Shown: positions 4,251 to 41,183, counted from the whole stretch's first letter. The stretch: DNA of 57,406 bases, filler included, from Squatina squatina (GCA_031763465.1; 4 parts of 4 records of this genome joined end to end with filler, not necessarily neighbours in it); one strand, 5' to 3'. The notes: generated from the letters alone by a model not told the origin. A program made the numbers and translations.

Positions 4251-4649
4251 TCAACTCTGCATGTGAGGCAACAGAGAGATGAGGGTCCCTGCTCTCGGTT
4301 AGCTGCAATGGTCATACATAAACTGATTTGAGTTCAATCTCAAGCCAGTTTCTAATGGGACTTATCCACAGCTCAAAATTGCTCATAATTCAACATAGTC
4401 ACAAAATCATCAGATATGTGCTTCGTCTCTTCAAAATGCATCAACACCACGTTCACGGCAAATTCCCTTGGTGACCGTGGATTCTGGTCATGAACTTTCA
4501 ACTCCTCAAATAGTGTTGTTTCTGCTGCACTTTTGCAGAACAATGCAACNNNNNNNNNNNNNNNNNNNNNNNNNNNNNNNNNNNNNNNNNNNNNNNNNNN
4601 NNNNNNNNNNNNNNNNNNNNNNNNNNNNNNNNNNNNNNNNNNNNNNNNN

Positions 4650-5460
4650 AGCATAATTAGAACCTGAATAAAATGCTCATCAGAGGCAACATTTTGCAGT
4701 TCAGAGAAGAGATGAATGGACTTTAAAAGAAATTGTTCTGAAAGACTATAGGCCTTTGACCAAAGGCAGAGCAAACCAAAATTAGCATTGCTAATAGCTT
4801 GGTTAAATTTCTGTCCTAACTCCACAGAGATTGATAGGGCTCTGTGATAGTTCTTAGCAGCTTCCTTCACATTTCTCAATCTTCTCATGGAGATAGCAAT
4901 CATATTGTAAACAACCCCCTGCTGTACAGGGCAACTCTGAACAGAAGAGGACTCTAGTGTTGTGTTTAAAAAGACAATGGCTTTAGCAGGCTCACTATTC
5001 AGAATGTGCAACCATGCAAGAGAAATAACTGCATCGACCATCTCCTCAGTACTAATGGAGACTTGTGTGTTAATGGCCATTTTCATGTAATGAACTGCTT
5101 TTCCATATATTCCATGCAGTTTATAAATTTCTGATAAGCTGAGGTAAATGGTTCGACTAATGTTGTCCGATTCAAGACTGTTTGTTAAAGAGAGTGCCCA
5201 TTTAAGGTAAGGTGCTACTTGTGTTGGAATCATGGGAGTGACTCTACCCATTCCACAGAGCTTTGAGGCACCTTTCATGACAAAGTTTACACTTTTCAAA
5301 CAATCCATTAAAGTTCTAGTAGGCTGTAAGCAGGAAAGTTTTGCACAGCTTATAGCAAGGTTTGGCAGACATTTTCGATAATACAGTGATCCAAGGGTAA
5401 AATGAAAGTCTAAAGGGGTCCTATTTTCTAACATTATGGCATTTCTCAAAAACTGCAGTC
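4650..5460 (-). CDS. SH3TC1: SH3TC1-like large TPR exon, both ends in gaps
   Basis: Open frame with TPR helices (QQGVVYNMIAISMRR...AAKNYHRALSISVELGQKFNQAISNANFGLLCL). Confidence 0.8.
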
Positions 5461-5651
5461 TTTNNNNNNNNNNNNNNNNNNNNNNNNNNNNNNNNNNNNN
5501 NNNNNNNNNNNNNNNNNNNNNNNNNNNNNNNNNNNNNNNNNNNNNNNNNNNNNNNNNNNNNNNACCATTATACGTCAGTGCTTTATAAAGAATGCGGGAA
5601 ATATTAACGAAAGGTAAACTACAAATAAATCACCTACATCTGTGATGTTCA

Positions 5652-11072: not shown

Positions 11073-12521
11073 TTAGATCTGGTACTCTTTTTCTGGACTG
11101 CTTGTGGAAGAACTAAAACCAAGTTTTGCATCCTCCATTTTTTCTGGCACCAGAATAGAATCTTCATCTTCTTCGGTTGTCAATTGATCAAGGATATCAT
11201 ATGCCAGTTTATATATCTCCTCATTTTCATGCAGTTGTAATTGTTCAATCATTTGCAAACCTCCACACTCTTCAATCTGGTTTGTTATCAGTTCTGTCTT
11301 ATCATTTGCTGTATTCAGGATATTACTTAAGCCATCCAGTACTACTATAATTATCTGAGGGTCCAGCAGTGTAAGCAGCCGGCAGAATGGAACTACTACA
11401 TTTTGTTCAATCAGGTAGTTAATCTGATCTTTCCTACCANNNNNNNNNNNNNNNNNNNNNNNNNNNNNNNNNNNNNNNNNNNNNNNNNNNNNNNNNNNNN
11501 NNNNNNNNNNNNNNNNNNNNNNNNNNNNNNNNNNNNNNNCTACCACAATTAGCTAGATTGGCTATGACCCAAGCAGTTTCTTTCTGCGTAGCATAATCCC
11601 CATTTTCCATGAGGTTTACAATCATAGGAACAAGGTTAGCATTAATCACGGCCTGTTCCTGTTGCTGGTTTCCAGCAGTGACATTGGAGAGAAACCATGC
11701 AGCATCCTTATTGAGTTTCACATTAGGATGAGTTAGCAATGCTGGAAAATGAGAAAGAGCTCCGCAGTTCAGGACCGCTTGTGCTTGTTCATCAGTACCA
11801 GTTACAATATTTCCTACGGCTCGCAATGACGCAGTTTGAATATTGGCCTCCTGATGGCTAAAAAAAGGTACCAAATGAGGAACTATTCCTGAATCTAGAA
11901 CCATCTGGATCTGGTCATCTTCAGCATCTGTTATGTAGGACAAGGCCAAAACAGTGTCTATTAAGACATGAATGTCATTGTGATGAACAAGAATACACAT
12001 AGCTGGAAGAATCTCTTGAACAGTTTCCTTTGGCAAGGGAGGGTCTTTCTGACGGCAGAGATTAACAATTACCCATGTGACAGTGCGAAGGAAAGTAAGG
12101 GGGACTGAAGCACTGACAAAAGAAAGCACAGGCTTTATCATTCCTAGACTAATGACATAATCTCTACATTTGGGCCCATCAGCTATTACATTGCCTAAAG
12201 CCAAAAGTGCTTGTTCGCACACATCCTGATGTGGGCAGTTCAACAGTCTTAACAAAAGTGGGACAGCATTTGATTTAATCATAGCCTCTGTGTGTTCTGA
12301 AGGACCATAAGCAATGTTTGCTAAAGCCCACACTGCTTCTAACTGCAATGGAGGATTGTTGTCCTGTTCTAGACAGCGCATAAGAATTGGAAAAATGCCA
12401 GAATTGATTAAATCACCTATTGGAGGAGCATAATCACCGGACACCAACTCTCTAGCAGCTTGCACTCCGCTGAGTTGAATTTCCTGGTTATCACTAGTTG
12501 CATTTTTTACTATTTCTTCTA
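11073..12521 (-). CDS. KPNA4: Intronless divergent importin alpha-3 (KPNA4)-like retrocopy; IBB domain lost in the upstream gap
   Basis: ARM repeats to stop without introns; KPNA4-type [28 protein letters not shown]; flanks of the 11440-11539 gap overlap by 6 nt (ctacca), restoring NCG-RKDQ in frame. Confidence 0.85.
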
Positions 12522-12621
12522 NNNNNNNNNNNNNNNNNNNNNNNNNNNNNNNNNNNNNNNNNNNNNNNNNNNNNNNNNNNNNNNNNNNNNNNNNNNNNNN
12601 NNNNNNNNNNNNNNNNNNNNN

Positions 12622-13295
12622 CTCAGGCCCCCTCCCCAACCTCTTTTTCTGATACATTGATGACTGTATCGGTGCCGTTTCCTGCTTTCGCCCTGAGCTT
12701 GATACTTTCATTCACTTTGCCTCCAATTTCCACTCTTCCCTCACCTTCACATCTCTGACTCTTCCCTTCCCTTCCACGACTTCTCTTTCTCCATTTCTGG
12801 GAATTGGCTCCTCACAAGCATCTACTATAAGCTCACTGACTCCCACAGCTACCTGGACCACACTTCTTCCCACCTTGTTTCCTGTAAAAACTCCATTCNN
12901 NNNNNNNNCTCCGTCTCTGTCGCATCTGTTCTGATGACGCCATGCTTCTGACATGTCTTCCTTTTTCCTCAACCGAGGATTCCCCTCTACTGCGGTGGAC
13001 ATGGCCCTCGATTGTGTCTGTTCTATTTCCCACACCTCTGCCCTCACCCCTTCTCCTCTCTCCCAGAACCACAATAGGGTTCCCCTTGTCCTCACTTTTC
13101 ACCCCACCAGCCTCCATGTTCAATGGATCACCTGCCGCCATTTCCGCCACCTCCAGCGTGATTCCACTACCAAAAACATTTTCCCTCCCCTCCCATTTCA
13201 GGATTCCAAAGGGACCACTCCCTCTGTGACACCCTGGTCTACGCCTCCATCACCCCTACCAACCCCTCCCCTTCCCACTGTCCAGGGCCCCAAAC
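12622..13295 (+). mobile_element. Penelope-like retroelement remnant (RT C-terminal region)
   Basis: IYYKLTDSHSYLDHTSSH, LRLCRICSDD, SSFFLNRGFPST...RVPLVLTFHPTSLH motifs. Confidence 0.75.
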
Positions 13296-16603: not shown

Positions 16604-17585
16604 CCCATATCCTCTCCCTACAAGATAATAGCTTTGTACTCTCGAAACTACATTTATCAATTTAATAATTTATAAAAAAGATGCAAGAAATGGGGTATCT
16701 GCTCATTCTGATTGTCACCATAAATCACACCTTATGTTTTATAATGCACAAAATGAGCACAAGTTTTCCTTCTCCTTAACAGTTTAGTTAAGCAGTGGGT
16801 TGGAGCACAGCTCCAGCAATTCTGCTTCAGGACTTGGACCACAAGGTATACCTTTTAAAAAAAAAAGACGGGCATGGACACACCAGATTGCCTAATTTGA
16901 GCACGGTTCTCCCGAGCAAATCAGGCCTGGTGTTAAAATGGCACAGGGCCTTTTTTGTGAGCTCAGACGTTTAACAAGTCTTAAGAATTGTGCTGAATCC
17001 AGCACAACTTCCAAAGCTGCCTGACCAACAACGGTGAATGGATGCAAGAGCCAAAAACAACCACTATGTCCACCTGCAACCATGTCTTCCGTTTCTCCTG
17101 CGAGATTGCTGGTAAATTGGCAGAGCATCACTTAAGACTACTCTCACATACAAAAGCAGCCTGCAGCAACAGCATTTTCAGACTTTAACAATTCGGGAGG
17201 AAATTTCAACACAAGCCAATGTTATGAAAACATGGTTTACATTTCTTTTAAACACTGAAAATCCCTACAGTGGAGATTGTATTCCAAACTTAATCCAAAA
17301 TTTGAGGGGTTTCAAGGAGGAAAATATTTTGTATTAAGTATCAATATTAATTCAATAGTTTTACTGTTTTAAAATGGGGTCCAAAATTAACGCCTACAGT
17401 TAACAAAAATTTGCACTTGATTTTAAAACATTGCATTAACTAAACTACCAATCAACTGTTTTAGCTCATGTGGAAAATTTATTTTCCCTCACTAGCAAAA
17501 TAATGCTAGTGACCAGAAAATGTTAATTTTGTACCCTTTAAAAAAAGGTGGCAAGGGAATAGAATCTCAAAGATTCTGTACTTAC

Positions 17586-18024
17586 TTCTCTGCCTCGACC
17601 TCTTCCTCCTTGTCCTCCCAGAATCGAAAGGGATCCGCCTCCATACTCGTTGCCAGCATAAGCAAGCATTCCCCTCCCCCGAGAGCCTACAGATGAAGGC
17701 TTCGAAAGGAGTGAAGAAAAGCTGCTGTAGGAAGAGTAACTTCCTCTTCCTGTTTCCGAATCAGCCCACACCCTAGGCATTGAGCTTGAATGTGTGTAGG
17801 TGTCATCCCAGTTAGACCTGCCATTATCATATAATCGGCTCTGGCTTCTACCTTCATAAGGGTCAAGGTATTGATCACCGAAATTCCTGTAGGAGCTCTC
17901 GGATCGATCAGGATAGCTATCCCCAAAGCGACTTCGTCCTGGTTCATGTAAATCGTAGCCAGATCTATACAGATCACGGCCATCCAGAGCAGACCTGGAG
18001 TCATGCGACTCATAAGGTCCAAAC
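17586..18024 (-). CDS. ZNF326: ZNF326 (DBIRD subunit, AKAP95 family) internal exon
   Basis: RFGPYESHDSRSALDGRDLYRSGY...YSSYSSFSS...VGSRGRG...GRGRGR; ttccAG acceptor, GTAAGT donor; LRRC8 neighbours as at human 1p22. Confidence 0.88.
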
Positions 18025-18874
18025 CTGGAAAAATTGCACAGTAAGGAAACCGGTAAAGTTACCAGTGAAATACAATAAAAACCAGAACAAAACACTGTTT
18101 ACCTGCTAAAAAGGGTTCAAATATTCATTCCCTTTTTCGTAGGTACATATTCTTGTTCACGTATGTATAAATTATATACAGCATTAGTTAAAATAGTTAA
18201 ATGTGCTATGAAAATAAGTTTTCAAACTCAACAAAAGGTAACATTTTTACCATACATGATTTAAGAAAAATGTTAACAATTAATACATGCCAATATAGGT
18301 TTAAGATTTACAACAGTTCTTTTATGTTGCATTTTTCCTGCATAGGTAGAAGTTCTTTTTGTATTGAAACTATTAGTCAATACACAATTACTGTAGTCAG
18401 AATTAAATGTAGACTACCTCATGGAAGTTGCTACTTTACTGTATTTTTTTTAAATAAATGAGCACGAAAACTTATTTGCAGTAATAAAGTTAAAGCATTT
18501 CACTAAAATGTTAAAACCTACCTAGAATATGAAAGCATATTCACAGTTAGCAACAATCATAAGCAGCTAACCTTTATAATTCTGTCTGAACTACTTATAC
18601 AAAGTTATGCAAAAAATTAATAAAATGTTATCTTTAAAAATCACATTTTTTGAACAAGTGTCCAGAAAGCATTTTTCTTTTTATGCAACAGTAGCAATGT
18701 TAACCCAATTAGTTTTCATATCCACAGCTATTTAGCATGGAGATTGCCGACAGTCTTGCCTCTGAATAGGGTTANNNNNNNNNNNNNNNNNNNNNNNNNN
18801 NNNNNNNNNNNNNNNNNNNNNNNNNNNNNNNNNNNNNNNNNNNNNNNNNNNNNNNNNNNNNNNNNNNNNNNNNN

Positions 18875-20004
18875 AATCAGATGCAGTAAAAATGCAAAAT
18901 CATTCTTCACATCCGGAATGTCATCAATCCCAGTTTCTTCTCTAACATATGCAAACGAGTATTCCTTAAGTTTAAAGTAGAAGATCCAGTACAATGTGTA
19001 GATGCAGGTTATACAATAAATGAAAATGACTACTACATACACGATGGACAACATCCTGAATAACCTCCAAAGACCATGGATGCAGAAAAATTCTGTGAAG
19101 CCTGTGATATGAATTTTATCTACACAGTGGACAATATGTTTCATTTGAGGAATCCGAGTTACAAAATAGGCTAGAACAAGAATTGTTTGAACAGAACGTA
19201 GAACAGTTTGCCTTATGTACATCCTATAAAGAATATGACCTTCTTCAGTGTGAAGACGAAACTTTTTGACTTTTTCAAACAATGCTTTTGCTTGTTCTCC
19301 CTCCTTTTTATCCAGGATTTTTACTGCAGCATGACCATAAACACCACCTCCAACAGTTTTAAAAGTCTTAGATGGAGGCTTGCACAATGATGCTTGTGCT
19401 TCAGTCTCACATAGTCTGTCATTTCTGGTTTCATTTTGTCCCAATAAAAAGGTGGTATCAGAAGATTGCTGTAGGTTTAAAGAGCAAGATACAGATGGTT
19501 CAGTTGATAAAACTGTTCGTTGTGGAATCTGCAGATCCGAATCCTCATAAACAGTTTCTGAAAGTGCCTTAGTAGTCCATTGAGAATCTAAACATTTTCC
19601 AAGGATTGATATAAAATGTTCAATTTTGGAACTTGTTCCTGGAAATTTGAACCAGAAGTTACTGCTTANNNNNNNNNNNNNNNNNNNNNNNNNNNNNNNN
19701 NNNNNNNNNNNNNNNNNNNNNNNNNNNNNNNNNNNNNNNNNNNNNNNNNNNNNNNNNNNNNNNNNNNNAAAAATATAAGTGTGTGAATGATAGCTATGTA
19801 CGGAAAATACTTTGAATACCACTGAATTGCATGGTCATAACAATATTGATCCATTAAATTGTACTGTTCGCGGTCCAAATCGGTCTTAAATCCAGAATCA
19901 AAACTATTTAGTTTACGACCTTTAAGAGCACTTTTGTTCCACTGCATGGTGGCCATCGAGAAGCCGTCTGGCACAGGGACACAGATTATCTTGTCTGTTG
20001 ATAT
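18875..20004 (-). CDS. Divergent LRRC8 paralog, coding exon 2 (EL1 to IL2; LRRs lost in gap)
   Basis: ISTDKIICVP...DLDREQYNLMDQYCYD...SSNFWFKFPGTSSKIEHFISILGKC...LDKKEGEQAKALFEKVKKFR...IPDVKNDFAFLLHLI; acceptor aaacAG; internal gap 19669-19768. Confidence 0.9.
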
Positions 20005-20558
20005 CTGTTTAAATACAACAGATAAAAAAAAATGCCATTTCATTTAACTCTGAACTAGTATTCAACAATTTTGCACATGCAGTTTTTTTTATTATGTTGC
20101 CAATACAATAAATGAACAAGAAAAGAAAATCGAAAACATGTGAGGCTGAACTTTATTCCAATATGCCTCTGGGTGTCCTTTTCTCTCTGTGTTTCAGGGC
20201 ATTATGAATGTTATCCTGTTTTTTTCTGATATGTGCTGCATTCTATGCTTGCTTGTTGATGTATTTTGCCTCAATTTAAACTATTTCAATGCAAATTGGT
20301 CACTTTTGACATAAATTGTGATTCAATTCCAACTATAGTAATTAGTTTGGCCCTGAAATTACATTGTGCAATACGAGTGGACAAGTGTTTAATGCATTCC
20401 TCTGAAATTCCTCTCTCCTATTCCTCTAATGATTTCTTTCATCACACAGTCACAGCAGATGTCTGGTGCTCTCTCTAGGCTGTCCATCTCAGGGGAAGAA
20501 TTCAATGCTGCTGCAGCAACTGCAGGGGTCAAGGCAGTTATTCGGTGTCTGTAACAAT

Positions 20559-21357
20559 GGGCCTGAAATTGCGATCGGAGGCTCCCTGGGAGACATTGCA
20601 AAAGCAGATTATGGGGCTGTACCTCGTAAGCCTGCATATCCAGCATTTGCGATCTGTCCAGAAACGTCTGGTAAAACCTAGAANNNNNNNNNNNNNNNNN
20701 NNNNNNNNNNNNNNNNNNNNNNNNNNNNNNNNNNNNNNNNNNNNNNNNNNNNNNNNNNNNNNNNNNNNNNNNNNNNNNNNNNNAATCAAGGGTTATGGGG
20801 AGAAGGCGGGGAGGTGGACTTGAGAAATGTCGGATCAGCCATGATCCAATTGAATGGCGGCGCGGGCTCAACGGGCCGAATGGCCTACTCCTGCTTCTAC
20901 TTCTTCTGGTCTTATCTGCTCAGTTATACCATCATAAGAAATATTTAAAAATTTTAATTCAAAAAAATTAATGGGACATTACTTTAAAATCATGTTTGTA
21001 TTATTTATCTCCTTTTTATTAAATTTTAATGTTAGAATAGTTTTTTAAATGTTTTGGGATGTGTTTGTGTTATTTTTCATCTTTTTTGAACTTATGACAG
21101 TTCTTGACAGATCGCTGAGAATTGTCAAAAGTTCAATGAAAGATACACCTACCTGATTGTCTGGGGCCTCTCATGTGACCTCTCCAGCCTCTTAGGTCGA
21201 CTTGCCCGGGAAACTAGGGAGCACCGCTCAGAATCTCCAACTCGGGGGCTGAAGATCGCAAACTCCCGTGGATCCAGGACCCTTGGGTAAGTACGTAGAG
21301 TAAATTGCAATCGGAGGCATCCGCACGCAGGAAGCCTCCGATCACAATTTCAGGGCC
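20559..21357. mobile_element. Non-autonomous DNA transposon (MITE, probably Harbinger-related) termini
   Basis: Inverted ends gggcctgaaattgcgatcggaggct / agcctccgatcacaatttcagggcc; a gap lies between, so these may be two copies; same family at 47420-47570. Confidence 0.6.
20784..20912 (+). repeat. CR1/HER1 LINE 3' end
   Basis: atcaagggttatggggagaaggcggg...gatcagccatgatc...gggccgaatggcctactcctgct. Confidence 0.7.
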
Positions 21358-21622
21358 GTTAACTTGGTTTCGATCTCCACAGACCTGCTGAGTATTTCCC
21401 ACATTTTCTGTTTTTATTTCAGATTTCCAGCACCTATTTAAAAAATATTTTTCTATTTAAAAAAAAAACTGTCACTTGCTGTGAAACAGCATTATATTGA
21501 AAGTCATTCTGATTGACTGAATATAACAATTAAAAAATTCTGGTTAGAATGGACACTTGGTAAACCAGATAAATCAGCAACACAGATCAGTCCATTGTGT
21601 GTGAATACAAACCATGTGTTAC

Positions 21623-21760
21623 CTGCAATGTCCCTCCAAAAACTGCTACCATAAGCATCAGAATAGTTAAATAATCTGTGAAAACATCCCACCATGGTTT
21701 TAGGATTTTAAATGTAGCTCGTTGGTCTCCAAAGTATTTCAGCTCAACCACTGAAAACAT
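21623..21760 (-). CDS. Divergent LRRC8 paralog, coding exon 1 (N-terminus + TM1; not in ORF track)
   Basis: [46 protein letters not shown]; acceptor 2 nt before ATG, donor CAG|GTAAC, phase 0 matches the exon at 20004. Confidence 0.9.
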
Positions 21761-24700
21761 ATCTAAAAAACAAAAAGAGATTACTATTTATATAAATCAC
21801 TGCCACCAGACATTTCATTACAAGTCTAATTATGTTATTTTCACCTTGTACAGATCATGTAAGGTCATGTTGTGAACACTGTGCTGCTTTGCGGACCTAC
21901 TTTNNNNNNNNNNNNNNNNNNNNNNNNNNNNNNNNNNNNNNNNNNNNNNNNNNNNNNNNNNNNNNNNNNNNNNNNNNNNNNNNNNNNNNNNNNNNNNNNN
22001 NNNTTCTCGTATGTACTGAAAACGTGAGGATATCTTTTCCCTGCTAGAAGAGATCTTTGACTGAGTGAATCATTTGGTATAATTTCAGGTCTCAAATTGG
22101 CAAGTCAGAGCCAAACATGACGTATATTGGAGGACAGCCAAGGTGCATCCCAGAGCAACCCCATTCACTTACACAGAAACCTGGGCGTCTGCAGATTGAT
22201 TCAGAGTTTGCCAAGCAGGGTGGACGGGGAAGTTGCCAGTAGTCATGTTTTCTCCCCCCCCTCTGGTTCACCCACAGATTGGTGTCAAGACGAGTATGAA
22301 GTGCGACGTCTATAAAACTGAACATAGACACTGAATGGGACATGCGTTGTGACGCATCCTCATTATTTATTGTCAGCAGATTTTCTGGGTACAATTATCT
22401 GCCAGGCTGAAGACATGGCAATAGGTACATTCGAATTATTTAGGTGAGTAGCACACGTGGAGGAGTGCCTTGTGCTGAAATTGGTCCCCTTGGCCCTTCC
22501 TTCTTTAAAAGCAGCTACCAAGCAAGTTAACAAAAAACAATTACTTTGAAGTAAGTTTGTTTTATTTAGAAAAAGCTGAAATTGGTGCTAGGAGCTAGAT
22601 ATTGGCACATTCTGTACGCTAAATTCACACAGTTTAGAGCCCAAAACTCAACTCTCTATAGAAATACAAACAGGTAATGTGGTGTGATACCACAGAGACA
22701 CAAAATGCGGGTTTATGCAAACTTCTGATCTTAACTGTGCTATTAAGGAGAGGAGCCAAGCTGCCTGGAGGGAGATAAAGTTAATTGGGTGCACAGGTGT
22801 GTGACACCAGAGGGACAAAGGAAGGGAATCAGAGGTGAGAGATCAGTGAGTGTGAGAGGCTGGTGTTCATGGACTGTGGGCACAAGGTTGGAGAGGGCTA
22901 ACATCCACATACAGCATTGGCCAAGCCACTTACTTTATGTACTTGAGGTGTAGAATGAAGCCTTTGATCTAGTGAGGCTCTTTGCCTCTGGCACTTTATA
23001 GCCACTGCTCTTTGGTAGAGGGAGAACGTTTAAACACGCAGCTTTGGCTCTGTTTCCTCCATCTTGTAAGGTGGCTGAGAGTCATGCAGGACTAGAGGCA
23101 GCCTTCTCAATGCACATTGTAAATCCAGGTTGCATCTTGCATTGATACTGGGGTGGGGTTAAGACCCTCTTGCCAGATTGAAGTACTTGAGTCTGGGTTG
23201 ACCAACATGAAAGAGACTTGAATTAGTAACAGCCAGCACTACGCTTGGGAGGAAGAAAATGCAGTGTTGGGTGCAGAATCCGCATGTGCCCCCCCTGCTG
23301 TGAGTGAAGTGTCTGGCCACAGATCTGCACCTCCCTCTCTGAGAGTCCGATTGTACAAGAGCAGTAGCTGCGTAGGGAATATGGAACACACAGCTTCTAA
23401 CAGATACTGTGAAACAACTGGCAGCAGAATATTGGGGAATGGCTGGAGTGATTGTGGGGAGTAAACTACTCTCCATCTGCTGCTGCAAGTGTCCAATCAC
23501 CATCTGCAGCCAGTGGGTGTGGAGACAGCCCTTTGATTTCCAGCTGGAGATTGAGAGCATCCCGGGCTCTTCAGTATCAAGGATTTTGATGTCTTGTACC
23601 TGATTGTTATTTTCTGGGGAGGGGAGAAGAACTCCTTTTGCACTTGCCAACCACATTGCTGCTGTAACGAGCTTTCTGTGGCGGGGTGGGTTGGGGAAGT
23701 GTGATCTGATTAGATCTCGGGCAAATAGTCCCATCTACAATTGTAGAAATGATTACTTTGCTGGATCATTTCACCTGAACAGGGAATTCTAAAAATGTAA
23801 CGTGTTTAACTGAAGAAGTCTGGTAAGGCGGTGCGTCAGGGATCTGATGGCCTATAGTTAAGCCTCTAAATAGGTCACATCAGTTGTCGGAGCAAATATT
23901 CATCTGTCCAGCTGGGATGAGTGCAAGTCGTCTTTGGCTTTTTAATTTTTATTATCACTTAAAGGGAAATATTCATCTGGCCGTGCAAGTGGAGTGAAAT
24001 CCAGCAGCCTGGTACAGCCAGTGTCTTACCACATAACCCAGAGGGGTATTGAGGGATTGAACCACAAGAGCTGCCCCCGAATGCATTCGCTCGGATGGCC
24101 CATGGGCTCCCATGGTACAGGCTCCAATAATTCGGACTGCACAGAGATGCAGTCAGTCCCACTGGGTCCTTTTGGATTTTCACTAAATCGGGCATGATTT
24201 CGGGGAATGATTGCCTGCCCAATCTGAATTGTTATCTGCAGACATTCTAATCACTTAACACACAGTACAGAATAACTGGAAACACACCTTCGTATTAAAG
24301 GGGAAATAATGTGAATTTGGGGGAGAGAACCTGTGTAAATCTGGGGTTTGTAACGTGTCTGCCTGTTGGGAACACGGCTAGAGATTTGCTTTGTAATTTT
24401 GTAATTTTTGCTGAAATTTCTGTTGAATTAACTAACTTCCTCCAGTGAGGGTTGAAAATTACTGCAGCCTAAAGCTGAATTTCCAGAGTTACCCCACGGA
24501 GCAACACCGAAGGGAATGAATCCTATTTGCTGTTCCCACTGGTGACTTTCCCCGTGCTTTAATGTGTCCCATAGAAACTGCTCTAGATAATGAGTAGAAT
24601 GCAATTTAAAATCAACAGCTTTGGGCATGACTGACTGGAGGTTAAATGGCTATAGTTAAACCAATTCCGAGAGTCTTCCCATTTGAAGCTTGAATGTAAA

Positions 24701-25478
24701 ATGGCAACCAGCACAGTTGTCAAACACAACCCGCAGTCACTGGCACAGCGTTGTAGGGCTGGCTCACTGCGGGACACGGGGGAACGCGGCAGGAGCGCAC
24801 TTGGGGGGAAATTTAAACGAGCCCGCCCGTCAGGAAACTGGCTGGATCGGGTTCAGCGCCTGTTTTACGCCCTGCCATTGGCCATTGAAGTTGGTGGAGA
24901 GCAGTATTGGGCGGACTGTAAACCGCAGTTCCACCCGATTCCTTGGGTTCCCCGCCCGGCCAGGTTAGGTTAAAATCACCCTCTTGGCTCAGGATTAGCG
25001 CACGACAAACTGTCACTCGGGGAGGTGTCGGATGGGCCTAAAAGGCGGTGAGCTGTTCCTTGACAGGAGCCAGCACATTCAGGAGAAGGGGACGCAGCCA
25101 GCGATTGCCACGATGTGCCAGAGACTGGTTTTGTATCAAGGCATAGATTCCTTGTGTGGATGAACCGGGATCACAGTTACCTCCCTACCCTATAACTTTG
25201 CAGAATCCTGCATTCCTCTGAACGGTGACTGTCAGTCCTNNNNNNNNNNNNNNNNNNNNNNNNNNNNNNNNNNNNNNNNNNNNNNNNNNNNNNNNNNNNN
25301 NNNNNNNNNNNNNNNNNNNNNNNNNNNNNNNNNNNNNNNAAAAACTAGCATCACCTTTATCTAGTTTTTAAAACAGTTGCCATGTTTAAGTACCTTGATC
25401 TAGTTTATACATTTTTTCCAGTTAACAAGCAAACAAACATTCAGTTCCAAAGCTGCTACATATGCTTTGCTCAATACT

Positions 25479-25890
25479 TTATATTCCTGCGCCAAAAGTT
25501 GAATTTGAGTTAAAGTCTTGATTAAAGAGGTCTTTAACATCAGGGGGCAGTGTGTCAAAGAGGTGATCTTCAACGACAAGCCCGCTTTTCTTCAGAAGGC
25601 GACAGTGGCCTAACTCTGCTGGGAGTCGGTCCAGGCAGTTCCCCTTCACCTCGAGCTGCGTGAGCTGCACAAGGTGACCAACCTTTTCTGAAATGGAAGT
25701 GATGCAGTTTTGCCCTACATTCAAAACCCTCAACTTTGTGCATTTAAAAACCTGCTTTGGCAAAATTTCCACTCTGTTTCCTGTAACTGCGAAATACTGT
25801 AAATTCTGGAGAGATGTGATTTCCGCTGGAATGATGACGATGGAATTGTGACTTACATCCAGGTATCTGAGCTTCTGTAAAGTGAAGAGA
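25479..25890 (-). CDS. LRRC8D: LRRC8D C-terminal LRR part
   Basis: LFTLQKLRYLDVSHN...KGNCLDRLPAELGHCRLLKKSGLVVEDHLFDTLP...GAGI stop. Confidence 0.9.
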
Positions 25891-26069
25891 NNNNNNNNNN
25901 NNNNNNNNNNNNNNNNNNNNNNNNNNNNNNNNNNNNNNNNNNNNNNNNNNNNNNNNNNNNNNNNNNNNNNNNNNNNNNNNNNNNNNNNNNACCTGCTGAG
26001 TTTTTCCAGCAATTTTTGTTTGTATTCTAGATTCCAGCATCCGCAGTATTTCGCTTTTGTATTACTTGC

Positions 26070-26392
26070 CTTTATATGTCACCTTTCACAACCTCAGGAC
26101 ATTCCAAAGTGCTTTCCAGCCAATTAAGTACTTTTTGAAGTGAAGGAACAGTTGTAACACAGCAGCCAATTTGTACACAGCAAGGTCCCACAAACAGCAA
26201 TGCAGTAATAACTGGCCCATCTGCCTTTGTTGTTGGTCGAGAGATAAAAAATTGGCCAGGACACCAGGGTGAACGCCCCTGCTCTTCGTCAAAATAGTGC
26301 CATGGGATCTCTTGCATCCATCTGAGAGGCCTTGGTTTAATGTCTCATCCAAAAGATGGCACCTCCAACAGTGCAGCGCTCCCTCAGTAATT
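26070..26392 (-). repeat. DeuSINE (SacSINE1/AmnSINE1-type Deu domain)
   Basis: Reverse strand reads ctgagggagcgctgcactgttggaggtgcc...gatcccatggcactattt...gaagagcagggg...ttgctgtttgtgggaccttgctgtg...cttcaaaaagtacttaattggctg; partial copies at ~14210-14380, 34310-34480, 43610-43780. Confidence 0.8.
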
Positions 26393-26826
26393 TCTCAGTA
26401 AATTTAGCCGTAATTTCTATGTGGCTCGGTGTCAAATTTTTGTCTTACAACACTCCTGCGAAGGAGCCTTAGGAAATTTTATTACATTAAAGGCGCTATA
26501 TAAATACAAGTTGTTGTTGTTGACCCTAGCTGAAGCTTATCAGAACATAAGCCTGTTCTGTCATTCAATTCATTAAGATCATGCCTGACCTGTACCTCAA
26601 CTCCATTTGCCTGCCTTTTTTCCATGTACCTTGATAGCCTTACCGAACAAAAATATATCAATCTCCGTCGTGAACTTTTCAGTTGACTCAATTGGAGTGC
26701 TACAATTGGTCTCTGTACCCGTGGGCTATAGCGGGGGAATATCAGCCAGGGTTCCAGCTCCTAATCACTGCTTAGCAACCTTGGTTGGAAAGTATATTTG
26801 TGTGTGCGATGGGCGAGAACAGGATC

Positions 26827-28427
26827 AGACTTGATCAGGCTGATGGATGAAGGGATGGTGATGATTTTGTTGTGCCATAATTTCAGGCACGTCAAGCGCT
26901 TCAGGTGTTGAAAACTGATCACCTCTTCAATTGTGCGAATGTTGTTGGATTTCAAGTCCAGCTCCTGCAGGTTAGTTAAGCTGAAAATGGCGTGCGGAAT
27001 CCGTTCCAGCTCGCAGTTCTGCAGCTCCAGCTCAGTTAGATTGATCATCTTCTTCAAGCTGTTCAGCACTAAAAGTTTAGTTCCATCATTGTGAACCAGT
27101 AGCGCGGTGAGATGGGGCGCAACGTCAGTGATGTTTGAAGGAACTTTGGTCAGATTACGCTTGAGGTGCAAGATCTTTAGGTGTTTCAGTTCGCGCAGCG
27201 ACTCTAGAGCTATCATCTTATTGTTTTCAGAGTTCAGATTACCAACTAGGTACAGTTCACGCAGGTTTTTAAGCACATAGACCCAGTTGGGGATTTCTGC
27301 AACGTCAGTAAACTTGATGTGCAGATACCTAAGGTGGTCCCGGAGGAAGCTGAAGGCAGTTTGTTCCACTTTAGCTGGGCAATGGTAAAGGTGCAGTTCC
27401 TGAAGATTAGTCATTTGGGAAATTTTGGCTGGAATCTTCGCCTCAGGAATCAGCTCTAACTTCAGCACCTCAAGCTCGGTCATGTCGAACACAGCGTCGG
27501 GCACCCCGGAAAGCATGAAGAGGTGCAGCTCCTGCTTGTCTTGAGGATTCCGAGAGACGTGCTGCTTGAGTTTCTCGTAAGTCCACTCGTGGTTCAAACT
27601 GAGCTCCCGCAGTTTGTTTTCACTCACCTCCGACAGAAAGACCCCAAAGCGCTTTGAGTAAAGTTGGTCATATTGATCAACCATGTGCAGCAGAAATGCA
27701 AAGTCATTTTTAACATCTGGAATGTCACTAAAGCTACTTTCTTCACGGACCTTTTCAAATGAGTATTCCTTTAAGGGCCGCCTGAACAGCCAAAACAAAG
27801 TATATATGCAAACCAGTCCATAAACGCATATGAGTGCAATGTAACTAATTAGTAATTTTCGCAGCATAAAAGCCATGTTGTGAGTACAATAAAATTGAGT
27901 ATACCCAGTCAAATGCTCTATGTCTGGTCTGCAGACATGATCAAAACTTATAGAAGTCACAAAAGTAAGCGTATAACATAAAATAAACATTAATTTCACT
28001 GTCTTTATGACTGTCTGGACAACATAGAGTTTATATATCAAATCACTGTCTTCTACATGGGCACGGAACTTACGAACTTTTTCAAAGAGGGCTTTGGCCT
28101 GCTCGCCATCTTTCTTGTCTAAAATAGTCATGCTCGGAACCTCAATGACAGGCTTCTCAGCCGAAAATTTAGGTCCAGTCCTTGATATCATAGGTGTGCT
28201 GGAGCTCGGGCTTTCTTCTTCGCTGCCAGTCGATAAATGCTTTGCCACAGAGGTCTTAAAGCGTTGCTTGTTCTCCTCAGAGTCCTCGCACGCAGTTTCA
28301 GAGAGTGCTTTTGTGGTCCACGGAGACTCGAAACACTTTCCCAATATAGAAACAAAATGTTCGATCTTTGAACTGGTCTTGGGGTACTTGAACCAGAAAT
28401 TGCTACTGACCATGAGGATGAGTGTAT
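26827..28427 (-). CDS. LRRC8D: LRRC8D main coding region (TM2 to LRRs)
   Basis: SSNFWFKYPKTSSKIEHFVSILGKCFESPWTTKALSETACEDSEENKQR...FSAEKPVIEVPSMTILDKKDGEQAKALFEKVRKFRAHVEDSDLIYKLY are LRRC8D-specific. Confidence 0.93.
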
Positions 28428-29220
28428 NNNNNNNNNNNNNNNNNNNNNNNNNNNNNNNNNNNNNNNNNNNNNNNNNNNNNNNNNNNNNNNNNNNNNNNNN
28501 NNNNNNNNNNNNNNNNNNNNNNNNNNNCATTAAAATGAGCAAATACATCCTTCATACATATGGGCTATTATGTTTACTTTATCCTTATACTGTTTTGAAT
28601 ATACAGATAAATACAATAGGAGTCAATTAAACAACTATTAAGTGCGGTGCTGAAACATAATTATGTATGATACTGCTATTTGAAATATAATTTACTCATA
28701 CAAAGTATCGCAGTTCACACATTCAGCCTTGTAATACTGTACATCAAGAAAATACAATATAGTAATTTGTACAGTGTGATAAAAATTGACATTAAAAAAA
28801 TAAAAAGGCAATTTAGTTCTAAAATCAGTAGTGGACACACAGATATCACAAACAGATGTCGAACAATTAAAATAATGACTTTGAATTACAATAACAGGGT
28901 TTTTCTCATTTGCGGATCATTTGGAATTCCAGGCAAAATAAAGTACACAAACCCTCCTAGCCTACAAGAAACCACAAATAATTACTGTTTTGTTTGCTGT
29001 AATGAGTAAGTGCAGAAGTGAGTGATGATAATATTTTGAACACAAGGAGGCCCTCATGCAGTTGAATTAGTATTAAATCCAATTCACATTGCAGGAGTGA
29101 CTCAGCAAGCAGTGAGTAGATCTCATGTCAACATTTCCACTAGAAATACTGAACCGAGTCTCTGTGATATGAATGTATGTTTCTTTGGATGCATTTACAG
29201 GACAGGTTTAGCATTGAGGC

Positions 29221-29320: not shown

Positions 29321-30139
29321 CAAATGTGTGCCTATTAACAGTTGGGTTGACACTGCCCCAAGATTATTTTAGAATCTTTATGGTTAGCAGACTTCGTTGG
29401 CTAATTCTAATCCAGTGAATGTTAAGACAGTCTGTTCGAGTTTCTGCTCATCTCCCCAAGTTATATCAGCGCACTCCGGATGGAATCGGACAAACCAGTG
29501 GAAAACATCAAAACCACTTGCACTCATGTTTTCCTCTATCTTATAAATGGGTTCAAGATTCAAGTGGCCCAGCCCATAAAAATGGCCACCCCCCCACCAG
29601 ATTGAAATTGAGATTCTGCTGATTGCACTGGTTTGGAAAGGCTCTTCAAAATGCACCCATTTCCTTAGGTGCACAGACACTAGTAGGCACGTTTGAAAAC
29701 TTCTTATGTCAAGAAATGCTACATTGAACCAGTAAATAGTATAGCTTTTTACATTATTTTCAGTGATTTTAAATCAAATTACTCACAGATGGAGGACTGG
29801 ACACCCTTATTAAAAGTTTTATTTTTGCTGATAAACTCATTTTCAACTGCAGCAATAAAACTGCACCAGGCTACCATCCAGGGAATACTTTTTAATGGAA
29901 AGCAAAAAATGATTACAGTCTATCATGCTGCCCAATTGTATTAGTTCATGGACAATTATAAGTTTGTGATTATGCAAATGAAATGTAACCAAACTAGCAC
30001 AATTTAAAGCACATTGTGAATTTCCTGATTGCGGCCAAAGCGGAAGTTCTACTTCAGTGTGCTTATCGACTGCATCTGCTAGTTCCCCTTCTAATCTATT
30101 CAAAAGCTCTGCATCTCTCCCCCCTCCTGTTTAGCTCAC

Positions 30140-30305
30140 CTGAATTCCAGATCCAGGGCCTGGCGCAAACATCTTAGTGCCAATCATTTTGGACAGGTTT
30201 CTCGGTTGGCTCCAGGTCCTTCCATCATCCTGGCTCTCAATCAGGAGTGTGCTGGAAACATTACAATGATAGTGGTGGGCACACATTGTGTACATGATCA
30301 AAATG
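30140..30305 (-). CDS. NEU1: Sialidase-1 partial exon
   Basis: [51 protein letters not shown]: Asp-box SxDxGxTW plus [10 protein letters not shown]; donor CAG|GTGAG. Confidence 0.9.
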
Positions 30306-30732
30306 NNNNNNNNNNNNNNNNNNNNNNNNNNNNNNNNNNNNNNNNNNNNNNNNNNNNNNNNNNNNNNNNNNNNNNNNNNNNNNNNNNNNNNNNNNNNNNN
30401 NNNNNCCCCCTTCTCCCTTTCCCTTCCCCCTGCTGTCTCTCTCCCCCCTCCCGTCTCTCTCACCTCCCGCGCTCTCTCCCCTCCCACTGCTGCAGCACTG
30501 ATCTGGGGTCGAAAGGGACATAAATCAACTCCCAGGCATAAACCCTCAAGCGAAGCAGATTCCATAAACACAACCCGGAGTCTAACTGGGCACTTTAACT
30601 GTAAATAGAAGCATAGAAAAAATACAGCACAGAAGGGGGCCATTTGGCCTATCATGTCTGTGTCGTAAAGAGTTTGAATTAATTACAGGACAAAACTAAA
30701 TCACTGACTGTGTTATTTTAACCTCCCCCCAG

Positions 30733-33811: not shown

Positions 33812-34202
33812 TCACAAGGCAAATATTCCAAAGAAGCTCTTTCCTTGGGCAGCGTCTACATGTCCCACTGCCTCCTTGCTCACCCTGGAGAAGATCTGAT
33901 CTCCTGCATCAAACTCAAATACGGCCCCCTGGTAGGAGGTCTTGTACCAGGGCCCTGCGTGTTGGCCGTACTGACAGGCGGATTTGGTGGCTTTCAGTAG
34001 TAAGGCTTCCTCCGGATAGCTGGGCGAGAGCTTGGCGAGTTCGTGGCTCAGATAGATGGTCTTACCCTGGCAGCCACTGCTGTAGAAGACCACCTGGGTG
34101 TAGACAAAGTACTGACCGGGGGTCTTGATGATGAAACTGTTGTCCCTGAACTCCACCCCCTGGGCAAAGGTGGAGTCCGCTACATTCTGCCAAATCACGT
34201 TC
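33812..34202 (-). CDS. TNF/LT-alpha-like ligand, copy 1, last exon (TNF homology domain)
   Basis: VIWQN...GVEFRDNSFIIKTPGQYFVYTQVVF...LLKATKSAC...WYKTSYQGAVFEFDAGDQIFS...GKSFFGIFAL stop. Confidence 0.9.
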
Positions 34203-34636
34203 NNNNNNNNNNNNNNNNNNNNNNNNNNNNNNNNNNNNNNNNNNNNNNNNNNNNNNNNNNNNNNNNNNNNNNNNNNNNNNNNNNNNNNNNNNNNNNNNNN
34301 NNAAAAAAAAATTAACCTGGTCATGACCACATTGCTGTTTGTGGGATCTTGCTGTGCGCAAATTGGCGTTTTACGATTTTACAACAGTGACTGCGCATGA
34401 AAAATTGCTGTAAAGCGCTTGATGATGCCCTGAGGTTATGAAAAACCCTCTCTTTATATATAAATTGCAAGTTTGTTCTTTAAGACTGTTCACAGGACCC
34501 TTAAAGCCAGCACAGATGCTAACTTCCACCCCTAACCAGCCTGGGCTGGATTTGACCCGAGCTTCCAGAGGCCCAACCCACCGGTCTTTACAAATCATTG
34601 CACTCTGCTGGCCAACAACAACAACAAAAACATTCC

Positions 34637-34861
34637 TCACAAAGCAAATATTCCAAAGAAGGTCTTGCCTTCTTTAGTGTCCAAGTATTTGACCACCTTC
34701 TCGGTAACACTGGAGAAGATCCTGTCGCCGGCCTCAAACTCAAAGATGGCGCCCTGGTAGGAGGTCTTGTACCAGGGGTCGTCGTGCCGACCGTTGTGGC
34801 AGACCGACTTGGTGGCCTTGAGTAGGATGGTCTCCTCCGGGTAGGCCAAGGAGAGCTTGTG
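34637..34861 (-). CDS. TNF/LT-alpha-like ligand, copy 2, partial last exon
   Basis: YPEETILLKATKSVCHNGRHDDPWYKTSYQGAIFEFEAGDRIFS...GKTFFGIFAL stop; close to but distinct from copy 1, with a different 3' flank. Confidence 0.88.
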   Translation of the reverse strand, partial: HKLSLAYPEETILLKATKSVCHNGRHDDPWYKTSYQGAIFEFEAGDRIFSSVTEKVVKYLDTKEGKTFFGIFAL

Positions 34862-34961
34862 NNNNNNNNNNNNNNNNNNNNNNNNNNNNNNNNNNNNNNN
34901 NNNNNNNNNNNNNNNNNNNNNNNNNNNNNNNNNNNNNNNNNNNNNNNNNNNNNNNNNNNNN

Positions 34962-36980
34962 GACACTGTAAACACAGCGGGAAGATTCCCTCTGGTCTCT
35001 GTGTGTTAGTGACACTGTAAACATAGCGGGAAGATTCCCTCTGGTCTGTGTGTGTCTTAGTGACACTGTACACACAGCAGGAAGTTTCCATCTGGCCTGT
35101 GTATGTGTTAGTGACACTGTAAACACAGCGGTAAGATTCCATCTGGTCTGTGTGTGTGTTAGTGACACTGTAAACACAGCGGTAAGATTCCATCTGGTCT
35201 GTGTGTGTGTTAGTGACACTGTAAACTCAGCGGGAAGATTCCCTCTGGTTTGGTGTGTCTTCGTGACACTGTAAACACAGCAGGAGGATATAATCTGGTC
35301 TCTGTGTGTTCCTGCCATTGTAAGCACAGCGGGAAAATTACATTTGGTCTGTGTGTGCGTTATTGAGTGTAAACACAGTGGGAAGGTTCCCTCTGTTCTG
35401 TGTGTTAGTGAAACTGTAAACACAGTGGGAAGATTCATCTGGTCTGTGTGTGCATTATTGACACTCTAAACACAGTGGGAAGATTCCCTCTGGTCTCTCT
35501 GTCTGTTACTGACACTGTAAACACAGCGGGAAGATTCCATCTGGTCTGTGTGTGTTAGTGACACTGTAAACACAGCGGGAAGATTCCATCTGGTGTGTGT
35601 GTGTGTTAGTCACACTGTAAACACAGCGGGAAGGTTCCCTATGATCTGTGTGTGTGTTAGTGACACTGTAAACTCAGTGGGAAGATTCCCTCTGCTCTGT
35701 GTGTGTCTTCGTGACACTGTAAACACAGCGGGAGGATTCGCTCTGGTCCCTGTGTGTTCGTGCCATTGTAAACACAGCGGGAAGGTTCCCTATGGTCTGT
35801 GTGTTAGTGACACTGTAAACACAGTGGGAAGATTCCCTCTGGTCTGTATATGCGTTATTGACACTGTAAACACAGCGGGAAGATTCCCTCTGTTGTCTGT
35901 GTGATTGTGCCACTGTAAACACAGCGGGAAGATTCCCTCTGGTCTCTGTGTGTTAGAGACACTGTAAACACAGCGGGAAGATTCCCTCTCGTCTGTGTGT
36001 GTGTTATTGACACTGTAAACACAGCGGGAAGATTCCCTCTGGTCTCTGTGTGTTAGTGACACTGTAAACATAGCGGGAAGATTCCATCTGGTCTCTGTGT
36101 GAGTGACACTGTAAACATAGCGGGAAGATTCCCTCTGGTCTCTGTGTGTTAGTGACACTGTAAACATAGCGGGAACATTCCCTCGGGTCTCTGCGTGTGT
36201 TAGTAACACTGTTACCATAGCGGGAAGATTCCCGCTGATCTGTGTATGTTCGTGACACTGTAAACATAGCGGGAAGATTCCCTCTGGTCTGTGTGTGTGA
36301 GTGACACTGTAAACATAGCAGGAAGATTCCCTCTGGTCTCTGTGTGTATTAGTGACACTGTAAACATAGCGGGAAGATTCCCTCTGGTCTTTGCGTTTTA
36401 GTGACACGGTGAACATGGCGGGAAGATTCCCTCTGGTCTCTGTGTGTTAGTGATAATATAAACATAGTGGGAAGATTCCCTCTGGTCTGTGTGTGTTCGG
36501 GACACGGAAAACAAAGCGGGAAGAATCCCTCTGGTCTCTGTGTGTTAGTGACACTGTAAATATAGCGGGAATATTCCCTCTGGTCTCTGTGTGTGTTATT
36601 GACACTGTAAACCTAGCGGGAAGATTCCCTCTGGTCTGTGTGTGTTAGTGACACTGTAAACATAGAGGGAAGATTCCCTCTGGTCTGTGTGTGTTAGTGA
36701 CACAGAACACATTGCGGGAAGATTCCCTCTGGTCTCTGTGTGTTAGTGACACTGTAAACACAGCGGGAAGAATCCCTCTGGTCTGTGTGTATGAGTTACA
36801 CTGTAAACATAGCGGGAAGAATCCCGCTGGTCTGTTTGTGTGAGTGACACTTTAAACATAGCGGGAAGATTCCCTCTGGTCTCTGTGTGTGTTAGTGACA
36901 CTGTAAACATAGCGGGAAGATTCCCTCTGGTCTCTGTGTGTGTTAGTGACACTGTAAACATAGCGGGAAGATTCCCTCTG
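34962..36980. repeat. Minisatellite, ~49-51 bp unit, ~40 copies
   Basis: Consensus gacactgtaaaca(c/t)agcgggaagattccctctggtctctgtgtgttagt; length varies in the (TG)n part; both ends in gaps. Confidence 0.95.
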
Positions 36981-37080
36981 NNNNNNNNNNNNNNNNNNNN
37001 NNNNNNNNNNNNNNNNNNNNNNNNNNNNNNNNNNNNNNNNNNNNNNNNNNNNNNNNNNNNNNNNNNNNNNNNNNNNNNNN

Positions 37081-37400
37081 GAGGGTGGTGTACCAGGTGC
37101 CTCGGTTGTGGTTCTTGCCGCACACGGTCTCAGTGCCGGCCAGCAGCAGCAGGGGCTCGGGGTAGGAGTCGTGCTTGCGGTACACCCAGTTGTACAGTGT
37201 GACTGGCTGGTTCTTGCACTCGCTGCCCCTGAAGCCCACCTGACAGTAGACATAGTACAGGCCACGTCGGGGGATGACCAGTGAGTGGCCCAGGTACTTC
37301 ACCGAGTCCTTGGTGAAGGCCAGCCCTCGCACCGACTCCCACTCCAGAGTCTGGTGAGACCCAGCACCTGGACCGCTCTCCAGGGAATGGTGATATATTC
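37081..37400 (-). CDS. LTB: Lymphotoxin-beta-like, partial last exon
   Basis: LEWESVRGLAF...GLYYVYCQVGFRG...VTL...LLLAGTETV...WYTTL parallels recalled LTB GLYYLYCLVGYRG...LLLEGAETV...WYTSV; acceptor ctctcgctgcAG, phase 1. Confidence 0.72.
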
Positions 37401-37489
37401 CTGCAGCGAGAGAGAAGGGGGAAATACTAGATAAGATCAATGAGCAAATGCTTTATGCTTGAAAGGTGCAGACAAACTACATCCTCAAT

Positions 37490-39938: not shown

Positions 39939-40108
39939 CNNNNNNNNNNNNNNNNNNNNNNNNNNNNNNNNNNNNNNNNNNNNNNNNNNNNNNNNNNNNN
40001 NNNNNNNNNNNNNNNNNNNNNNNNNNNNNNNNNNNNNNNGGTGCTTAGATAACCATTCTGTGGTTAAATAATTCAAACCTCTCTCTTCTTTTCCCCTCTC
40101 CCATCCAG

Positions 40109-40653
40109 CTCCAACTTGTCTGACTCTGGATCCTAAGACAGCACACTCCTGGCTCATCCTGTCTGATGACCTGACCAGCGTAAGATACGGAGACAAAGGA
40201 CAGCTGCTCCCTGAGACGCCAGAAAGGTTCTACCCATGCGTGTGTGTCCTGGCGTCTGAGGGGTTCACATCAGGGAAGCACTACTGGGAGGTCGAGGTGG
40301 GAGACAGTGCTGAGTGGGATCTCGGGGTGGTGGCGGAGTCCATCAACAGGAAGGGAGACATCACTGCAATGCCAGAGGCTGGCTACTGGATTGTCTGGCT
40401 GAGAAGGAGCGAATATAAGGCTGGTACATTGCCTCGTACCCGTCTGGCTGTGAGTGTGAAACCCAGGATGATCGGGGTGTACCTGGACTATGAAGAGGGA
40501 CAGGTGTCGTTTTACAATGCGGAAAATATGTCCCATCTCCACACTTTTGTTGACATCTTCACTGAGAGACTCTTTCCCTTCTTCAGCCCTTGTTTGAATG
40601 GCCATGGGAGAGCCACAGAACCACTAAAGATCTGCTCTGCTAAAGGTCATTAA
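40109..40653 (+). CDS. B30.2 (PRY-SPRY) terminal exon, TRIM39/RFP/butyrophilin-like
   Basis: [15 protein letters not shown]...GKHYWEVEVG...[16 protein letters not shown]...LFPFFSP; intact from acceptor catccAG to TAA. Confidence 0.9.
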
Positions 40654-40791
40654 CTGTAAAACGTCAGTTTTCATGCATCTTGCTTTCCCCCNNNNNNNNN
40701 NNNNNNNNNNNNNNNNNNNNNNNNNNNNNNNNNNNNNNNNNNNNNNNNNNNNNNNNNNNNNNNNNNNNNNNNNNNNNNNNNNNNNNNNNNN

Positions 40792-41183
40792 GCCCTCATA
40801 GTCCAGGTACACCCCGATCCTCCGGGGCCTCACGCTCGGCCTGAGGCGGGTGCGGGGCAGAGAGCCAGCCTTGTAATCATTGCCATTTCTCAGCCACACT
40901 ATCCAATATCCAGCCTGCGGAATGGCCGTGATATCCCCTTTCCTGTTGATGGACTCCTTCACCACTCCCACGTCCCACTCGGCACTCTCGCCCACTCCCA
41001 CCTCCCAGTAATGCCTTCCCGACGCAAATCCTTCTGAACCCAGGACGCAGAGAGAGGGGTTGAACCTTTCCGGGGTGTCGGGCAGCTGCTGTTGCTTGTT
41101 TGCATATCTGACGCTGGTCAGGTCTTCCGATATGATAAGCCAGGAGTGGGCCGTCTTGGGGTTCAGGGTCACCGAGGCCGGAA
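40792..41183 (-). CDS. Second B30.2 exon, close paralog, truncated by gap
   Basis: [26 protein letters not shown]...[19 protein letters not shown]...IGVYLDYEG; acceptor ctttgccAG. Confidence 0.88.

Follow-up and report, generated by a model that had tools for sequence, protein, structure and literature searches.

The LRRC8 gene that lies between LRRC8D and ZNF326 in Squatina squatina very probably belongs to a fourth deep lineage of the LRRC8 family, beside A/B, C/E and D, as judged from the trees described below. We use F and G as working labels, F for the gene copy in our window (the whole stretch of DNA analysed, 57,406 nucleotides), which belongs to a B/C/D cluster, and G for its sister copy, which belongs to an E cluster; by sequence, the lineage appears to consist of these two jawed-vertebrate copies and a lamprey member. 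VRAC work assumes five subunits, A to E, and a fourth deep lineage would add more: F and G bear on what makes an LRRC8 subunit obligatory or accessory, and the Arg copy F and the Val/Leu copy G would make a natural pair for studying the role of the filter residue in heteromers. By analogy, we favour a role for F as an accessory subunit that joins LRRC8A in anion channels activated by swelling, its Arg keeping A/F channels chloride-selective, and give this reading a probability of roughly 0.5. The initial annotation had proposed a sixth LRRC8 lineage lost in mammals; the extra lineage stands, with no member found in mammals, but it is larger than proposed, being a deep lineage with two copies and a lamprey member.

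Structure of the F gene in the window

The source scaffold (16604-29220) is broken by 100-N gaps, and the window is a chain of short scaffolds in which the F gene, on the minus strand, is spread over three contigs with 100-N gaps between them. LRRC8D, the F gene and ZNF326 follow each other in this order, all on the minus strand, with the following features:

21623..21760, minus strand: F exon 1, first coding exon, M1-Q46 (N-terminus and TM1; 46 aa, ending ...GTLQ)
20005..21622, minus strand: F intron, phase 0, GT..AG, with a 100-N gap (20684-20783) and repeat fragments inside; spliced out in the X3 and X5 contigs
19769..20004, minus strand: F exon 2, 5' piece (EL1 strand, short EL1 with a W-N-x-S sequon, EL1 helix, TM2)
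19870..19872, minus strand: F Arg91 codon, CGC, in DLDREQYN; corresponds to LRRC8A R103, and the predicted EL1 helix starts on it
19849..19851, minus strand: F Asp98 codon, equivalent to LRRC8A D110; goes with the Arg across the family
19669..19768, no strand: 100-N assembly gap, real size 2 bases, frame kept; bridged in 4/4 runs
18875..19668, minus strand: F exon 2, 3' piece, residues 127-390 (IL1, TM3, EL2, TM4, start of IL2); 95% identical to row P0001
19322..19552, minus strand: F IL1 loop, long and variable, without the LRRC8A D182-E206 segment; pLDDT <50 at 163-244
18974..19234, minus strand: F TM3-EL2-TM4, with the signature H-C..TG..F-C-x-H-G-L-W-R common to G and lamprey
25488..28425, minus strand: neighbouring LRRC8D, two pieces; groups with D in the trees
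17580..18026, minus strand: neighbouring ZNF326 exon; 96% to Carcharodon ZNF326 (P0134)

The gene was followed in assembled contigs from sequencing runs that we presume to be RNA (none is on record as RNA, and shares were all <0.2). A contig of 2337 letters from a relative (run X3) joins F exon 1 to exon 2 across 20005-21622 (GT..AG), crosses 19669-19768 with 2 letters, in frame, and extends 1137 letters past 18875; the same splice was found in run X5, from another study, confirming that the two exons belong to the same gene. Of 40 differences between F and X3, the 37 tabulated comprise 25 silent and 12 replacement changes (pN/pS 0.13), and F is a real, spliced gene under purifying selection. 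There is an AG acceptor at 21763-21764, 2 nt ahead of the F ATG, and the X3 contig carries 29 unmatched letters beyond this acceptor, 5' of the ATG; a non-coding exon upstream of coding exon 1 is therefore likely. The gene described initially as having two exons between LRRC8D and ZNF326 thus keeps its order, coding exons and GT-AG intron, and is two-exon only in its coding part. The Arg codon and the motif CLDSQW were both present as first described.

The LRR half of F is absent from the window, since the 3' piece of exon 2 ends at a gap ahead of the LRR domain. Disruption of this part had been raised as an argument against the gene; the LRR domain is intact in full-length orthologs, and that of this individual lies outside the window. 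The joins at 28428-28527 and 18775-18874 look homology-made, with the LRRC8D exon abutting an unrelated contig and the F gene jumping into non-coding DNA, and distances within the window are therefore not real. Elsewhere in the window we found what we take to be intronless importin-alpha-like reading frames, possibly a retrocopy (11073-12711), a row of several TNF-family-like exons among simple tandem repeats (33812-37452), two PRY-SPRY (TRIM-like) exons in tandem (40072-41217), and fragments like a VWA domain, an SH3TC-type TPR region and a sialidase (719-1153, 4373-5629 and 30131-30682).

Range, phylogeny and gene clusters of the lineage

The best match of F, among 1011 passing of 1515 candidates, was an 819-aa 'LRRC8C-like' protein of Carcharodon (XP_041064204.1; 95% identical), which has the same N-terminus (residues 1-46 are 100% identical), together with the Arg motif and a complete LRR domain. 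In the ortholog P0001, PF12534 and LRR families mark a pannexin-like four-helix domain and, after it, an LRR domain. Of the 15 members listed from the 46 of the F ortholog cluster, 12 are the F gene in 12 sharks and rays, and the remaining three are ZNF326, drawn in by a fused gene model which, in an independent assembly, places F immediately ahead of ZNF326; the accession numbers of the two genes are also adjacent in Cetorhinus and Chiloscyllium plagiosum. F is 91.5-93% identical between sharks and rays, and LRRC8A in sharks is 96% conserved.

It had been suggested that the gene may already be annotated as LRRC8C- or E-like, and this was the case for RefSeq 'LRRC8C-like' models by ZNF326 in 12 sharks and rays. 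The lineage is public under the borrowed RefSeq names 'LRRC8C-like', 'LRRC8A-like' and 'LRRC8E-like' (XP_041064204.1, XP_041033272.1, which is shark G, XP_078543347.1 and XP_075918320.1); the automatic names of F and G members are taken from A, C, D or E, none flagging the lineage as separate, and in the ESM Atlas all clusters retrieved were LRRC8 ones, automatically named. The LRRC8/VRAC literature covered did not describe the lineage; outside this literature lies the main 2012 phylogeny (Abascal and Zardoya), maybe with extra fish paralogs; 'LRRC8F', 'LRRC8C-like', LRRC8 in elasmobranchs and lamprey germline VRAC returned no literature, and the chimaera G accession is absent from the accession table in PMC4316641. 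The sequences are already public, and within this partial coverage the separate status of the lineage appears to be new.

The taxonomic range was surveyed using a profile of 15 F and G proteins, considering the best 120 of 1149 passing matches (7549 candidates). Of these 120, 32 are F or G (34 above a score gap, minus two in which other paralogs are fused). Their sources are chondrichthyans, coelacanth, sturgeon and amphibians; teleosts, gar, bichir, reptiles, birds and mammals contribute none. We found F in sharks, rays, newts and frogs, and G in sharks, rays, chimaera, coelacanth, sturgeon and amphibians. Loss of the lineage in mammals, birds, reptiles and teleosts may have occurred, for which this absence is weak evidence because the best 120 also miss the lamprey members and one frog F model. 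The lamprey member is multiplied, with many near-identical full-length models on small Petromyzon marinus scaffolds (19 in the cluster; at least 15; clusters P0032 and P0047) and several copies of the lineage on a single contig in Lampetra and Lethenteron; these copies are possibly germline-restricted DNA or haplotype duplicates.

Phylogenies were built from an alignment of 87 LRRC8 rows (787 columns kept), using FastTree on all 87 and IQ-TREE on 45 of them (LG+F+G4, a site-homogeneous model, with at most 70 search iterations and SH-aLRT/UFBoot supports). The trees are unrooted and without an outgroup, because no invertebrate LRRC8 was recognised among the best 150 rows of a 50%-representative search. 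Both methods agree on four groups, A+B, C+E, D and F+G+lamprey. In the 45-row IQ-TREE analysis, support is 100/100 for A+B and 99.2/100 for C+E (both with hagfish), 99.9/100 for D with two D-like paralogs and F outside, 100/100 for F+G+lamprey, 93.5/97 for F+G, 90/90 for F and 98.1/99 for G. AU tests rejected F forced with C (p 3e-102), A (p 1e-70), B (p 2e-43), E (p 2e-37) or A+B (range over all five, 2e-37 to 3e-102). In addition, Carcharodon has separate A, B (P0458), C (P0171), E (P0175) and G genes besides F, with E on another chromosome, and we thereby exclude that F is a misplaced 1:1 ortholog of A, B, C or E (AU p<1e-36). Amphibian F with G (AU p 0.24) and the F/G lineage as sister of D (AU p 0.32) were not rejected; moving the coelacanth gene, which groups with G, into F was rejected (p 0.003). 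The lamprey branch is long; the N-terminal and membrane-body trees join it to F/G (0.99), and the LRR-only tree does not. The lamprey protein has the EL1 W-N-x-T and EL2 H-C..C-x-H-G-L-W-R signatures in common with the lineage.

F had first been described as an LRRC8A-type N-terminus on an LRRC8C-like body, a mosaic that the regional identities and regional trees rule out. The N-terminus resembles A no more than it does C: residues 1-20 are identical to shark A at 9/20 positions, C at 8/20, E at 9/20 and G at 11/20, and exon 1 to A at 31/46, C at 28/46, G at 29/46 and newt F at 36/46. The TM3-EL2-TM4 region is identical to G at 51/87 positions, lamprey at 36/87, C at 32/87 and A at 27/87 (range for A to E, 27-33/87). 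F lies with G in each of the N-terminal, membrane-body and LRR trees; the exon-1 tree (46 columns) is poorly resolved, and F does not lie with A there. Bit scores against solved structures in the PDB (C 856, A 848, D 820) leave F about equidistant. Glu6, given initially as an LRRC8A feature, is present in F, but all of A, B, C, D, E and G have it in jawed vertebrates.

Gene clusters were judged from shared records and accession order. On this basis, B, C, F and ZNF326 are on one Carcharodon chromosome, and a second carries E and G. Discoglossus, Pseudophryne, Mixophyes and Rhinophrynus each have B and F on a single contig, as Ranitomeya variabilis has E and G. One D-type gene is next to A in carpet sharks and another is with E in Polypterus. 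An ancestral tandem array (A/B, C/E, D, F/G) may have been multiplied by early vertebrate genome duplication, a model that fits sharks and frogs but is contradicted by the coelacanth, where the G-grouped gene (P0006/P0149; Leu/Asn) sits on a contig with coelacanth B and C. In Lissotriton, F and G are apparently on the same record, which may reflect split chromosomes.

Our survey also identified other LRRC8 paralogs. The D-type gene directly next to LRRC8A in carpet sharks is a third D-type paralog, found as consecutive models on one scaffold (P0239 cluster, P0395, P0557), and is an unnamed subunit. A second, with Tyr at the filter, lies beside LRRC8E in Polypterus, is fused to LRRC8E in a rattlesnake model, and was seen in bichir, bowfin, perch, lungfish and snake (P0112, P0236, P0243, P0246, P0003 second half). 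LRRC8E is present in sharks (P0114, P0175; E clade 96.8/99), although PMC4316641 reported no LRRC8E in shark. Additional fast-evolving genes, C-like in anchovy and A-like in sole, were also seen (P0237, P0391, P0242), and P0497, labelled LRRC8B in Pimephales, groups with A. Sharks are likely to hold up to eight subunit types (A to E, F, G and the D-type gene beside A), and recordings from skates and amphibians would then have to be read otherwise, as possibly involving more subunit types than in mammals.

Channel landmarks and the probable role of F

All 12 F rows have Arg at the position equivalent to 103, and G has mostly Val or Leu at this filter position. This Arg had been taken as an LRRC8A mark; it is indeed at the R103 position, but is not diagnostic, since LRRC8B also has a filter Arg (R99; PMC12182595, Table 1). 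Among 401 proteins passing a motif filter, whose kinship reduces the count to two or three events, a basic residue at 103 and an acidic residue at 110 were concordant in 397 (144 with both, 253 with neither); A, B and F have the pair, and C, D, E, G and lamprey do not. No structural role for D110 is stated in the passages of LRRC8 literature consulted. We considered gene conversion of the EL1 helix from the neighbouring B gene as the source of the Arg/Asp pair in F, but the N-terminal tree holds F with G and lamprey (0.992).

As first described, EL1 is short and lacks the extra cysteine pair of LRRC8A: F has 38 residues from the first Cys to the Arg, versus 50-55 in most non-teleost A and C, and one EL1 Cys versus three in A and B, with no equivalents of C57 and C65, which we take to be a disulfide pair in LRRC8A. 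Kept in F are the equivalents of four conserved extracellular Cys (C54, C113, C295 and C310) and of E6, T44, K51, K98/D100 and K235, as well as a basic residue at 8. The structure predicted for a full F ortholog from a 71-row alignment (mean pLDDT 78.5) shows four membrane helices, a three-strand extracellular sheet, an EL1 helix at 91-104 starting at Arg91, and an LRR domain, and resembles the chains of LRRC8A and C (TM-score 0.74 to 7xzh_A). By sequence and in the predicted model, F orthologs keep the LRRC8 family architecture of a four-helix domain plus LRR.

The initial annotation also raised partial substitution of F for LRRC8A. According to published work, non-A subunits stay intracellular unless A is present (PMC6363415), LRRC8A D182-E206 is the minimal IL1 segment freeing C and E from A, and normal gating of A requires a non-A EL1 (both PMC6028502). 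No match to D182-E206 was found in F loops, 4/4 being at shuffle level (120-469 of 500 shuffles as high, versus 0/500 for shark and sardine A). F is thus without this 25-residue segment, and replacement of LRRC8A by F is therefore unlikely, with partial substitution not supported. The IL1 loop is conserved between sharks and rays at 84-87% in F, 97% in A and 73-79% in G; its variable part is dissimilar between shark and amphibian F, unlike A loops across vertebrates. This test speaks only to the sequence of A; a signal specific to F could lie in its own loop, which is kept fairly well between sharks and rays.

The mechanism that we favour rests wholly on analogy with human A to E. F would need LRRC8A to reach the membrane, would co-assemble with it and would set anion selectivity, its Arg making the outer filter fully basic and favouring chloride over neutral organic solutes; G, with Val or Leu, would make the filter wider, in the manner of C and E. 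We propose this because non-A subunits need A, because conduction is normal and anion selectivity high in the all-Arg channel A/C(L105R), which has six Arg (PMC12182595), and because LRRC8B is without reported transport beyond inorganic ions, neutral osmolytes depending on LRRC8D (PMC6451053). Counting against it, A/B, the nearest filter analogue, gives little or no current, and R103 is not the sole selectivity element (PMC12182595). Skate hepatocyte VRAC is described as unusually cation-permeable, the opposite of the A/F prediction, and F would therefore not dominate there. A special link to urea/TMAO/taurine osmoconforming fish, as suggested initially, fell away: the Arg copy is also in newts and frogs, G is in sturgeons and the lineage is in lampreys, which does not support an osmoconformer-specific gene, and an Arg filter predicts less passage of organic solutes.

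A clearly less probable reading is that F joins LRRC8A but, like LRRC8B, forms weak or silent channels, acting as a brake or modulator of VRAC. The low current of A/B, the basic-103/acidic-110 pair common to F, A and B, and the shared gene cluster of F and B are consistent with it, but six Arg do not prevent normal conduction in A/C(L105R), and the additional EL1 Cys pair of A and B is missing from F, whose EL1 is G-like, when A needs a non-A EL1 for normal gating.

We regard it as unlikely that F is a second core subunit, reaching the membrane alone or carrying C, D, E or G in LRRC8A-independent channels. The Arg/Asp pair, E6, K8 and T44 are as in A, the IL1 start (SETVYE) is nearer that of A (SETVVE) than that of C (SEVSGE), and conservation is strong, IL1 loop included; against this stand the missing D182-E206 match, the unlike shark and amphibian loops, the retention of a 96%-conserved A in sharks, and the absence of F from amniotes and teleosts among the best 120 of 1149 matches. 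An unlikely extension, marginally less probable still, would combine four LRRC8 lineages in the first vertebrates with F as a second core subunit, giving LRRC8A-independent channels in sharks, rays and amphibians; if true, the sole obligatory role of A in mammals would have arisen by loss of a whole lineage.

Equally unlikely as the second-core-subunit reading is one in which F forms a channel that responds to a different trigger or sits elsewhere, in an organelle or a single tissue (gill, rectal gland or gonad, for instance), outside ordinary volume regulation. Its divergent TM3-EL2-TM4, at 27-33/87 to A to E, its long separate history and the amplification of the lamprey member would suit such a role, but every VRAC pore and assembly landmark checked is kept in F. 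Finally, the homology-stitched scaffold, false-length gaps and missing LRR half might suggest an assembly artefact, a pseudogene, or a displaced or mosaic copy of A, B, C or E. This reading is highly improbable and already refuted for the lineage by the single contig covering all three pieces, the full-length orthologs in 12 species, the AU rejections, the three regional trees with F+G and the pN/pS of 0.13; only the LRR part of this individual could still be broken.

Comparison with the named LRRC8 subunits

The LRRC8D group has an aromatic filter residue, and F has Arg and lies outside that group. LRRC8C and LRRC8E are about 50% identical to F, with LRRC8C its best PDB match (856 bits); LRRC8C and F have a single EL1 Cys in common, and neither C/E nor F has the A-type IL1 segment. 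The first coding exon of human LRRC8C and LRRC8E also ends at Q46. However, C and E have Leu/Asn at 103/110 (LRRC8C Leu or Ile at the filter) where F has Arg/Asp, the F IL1 loop is ~25 residues longer, its TM3-EL2-TM4 is of its own type (32/87 to C), and a grouping with either is rejected. LRRC8A and F have the filter Arg, D110, T44 and K235 in common (848 bits in the PDB), but F is without the C57-C65 pair, D182-E206 and the longer EL1 of LRRC8A, and this grouping is likewise rejected. LRRC8B is the least similar paralog (43-45% identical to F), has three EL1 Cys and is rejected as a grouping partner, but no other named accessory subunit has a basic residue at the filter, and LRRC8B belongs to the same gene cluster as F.
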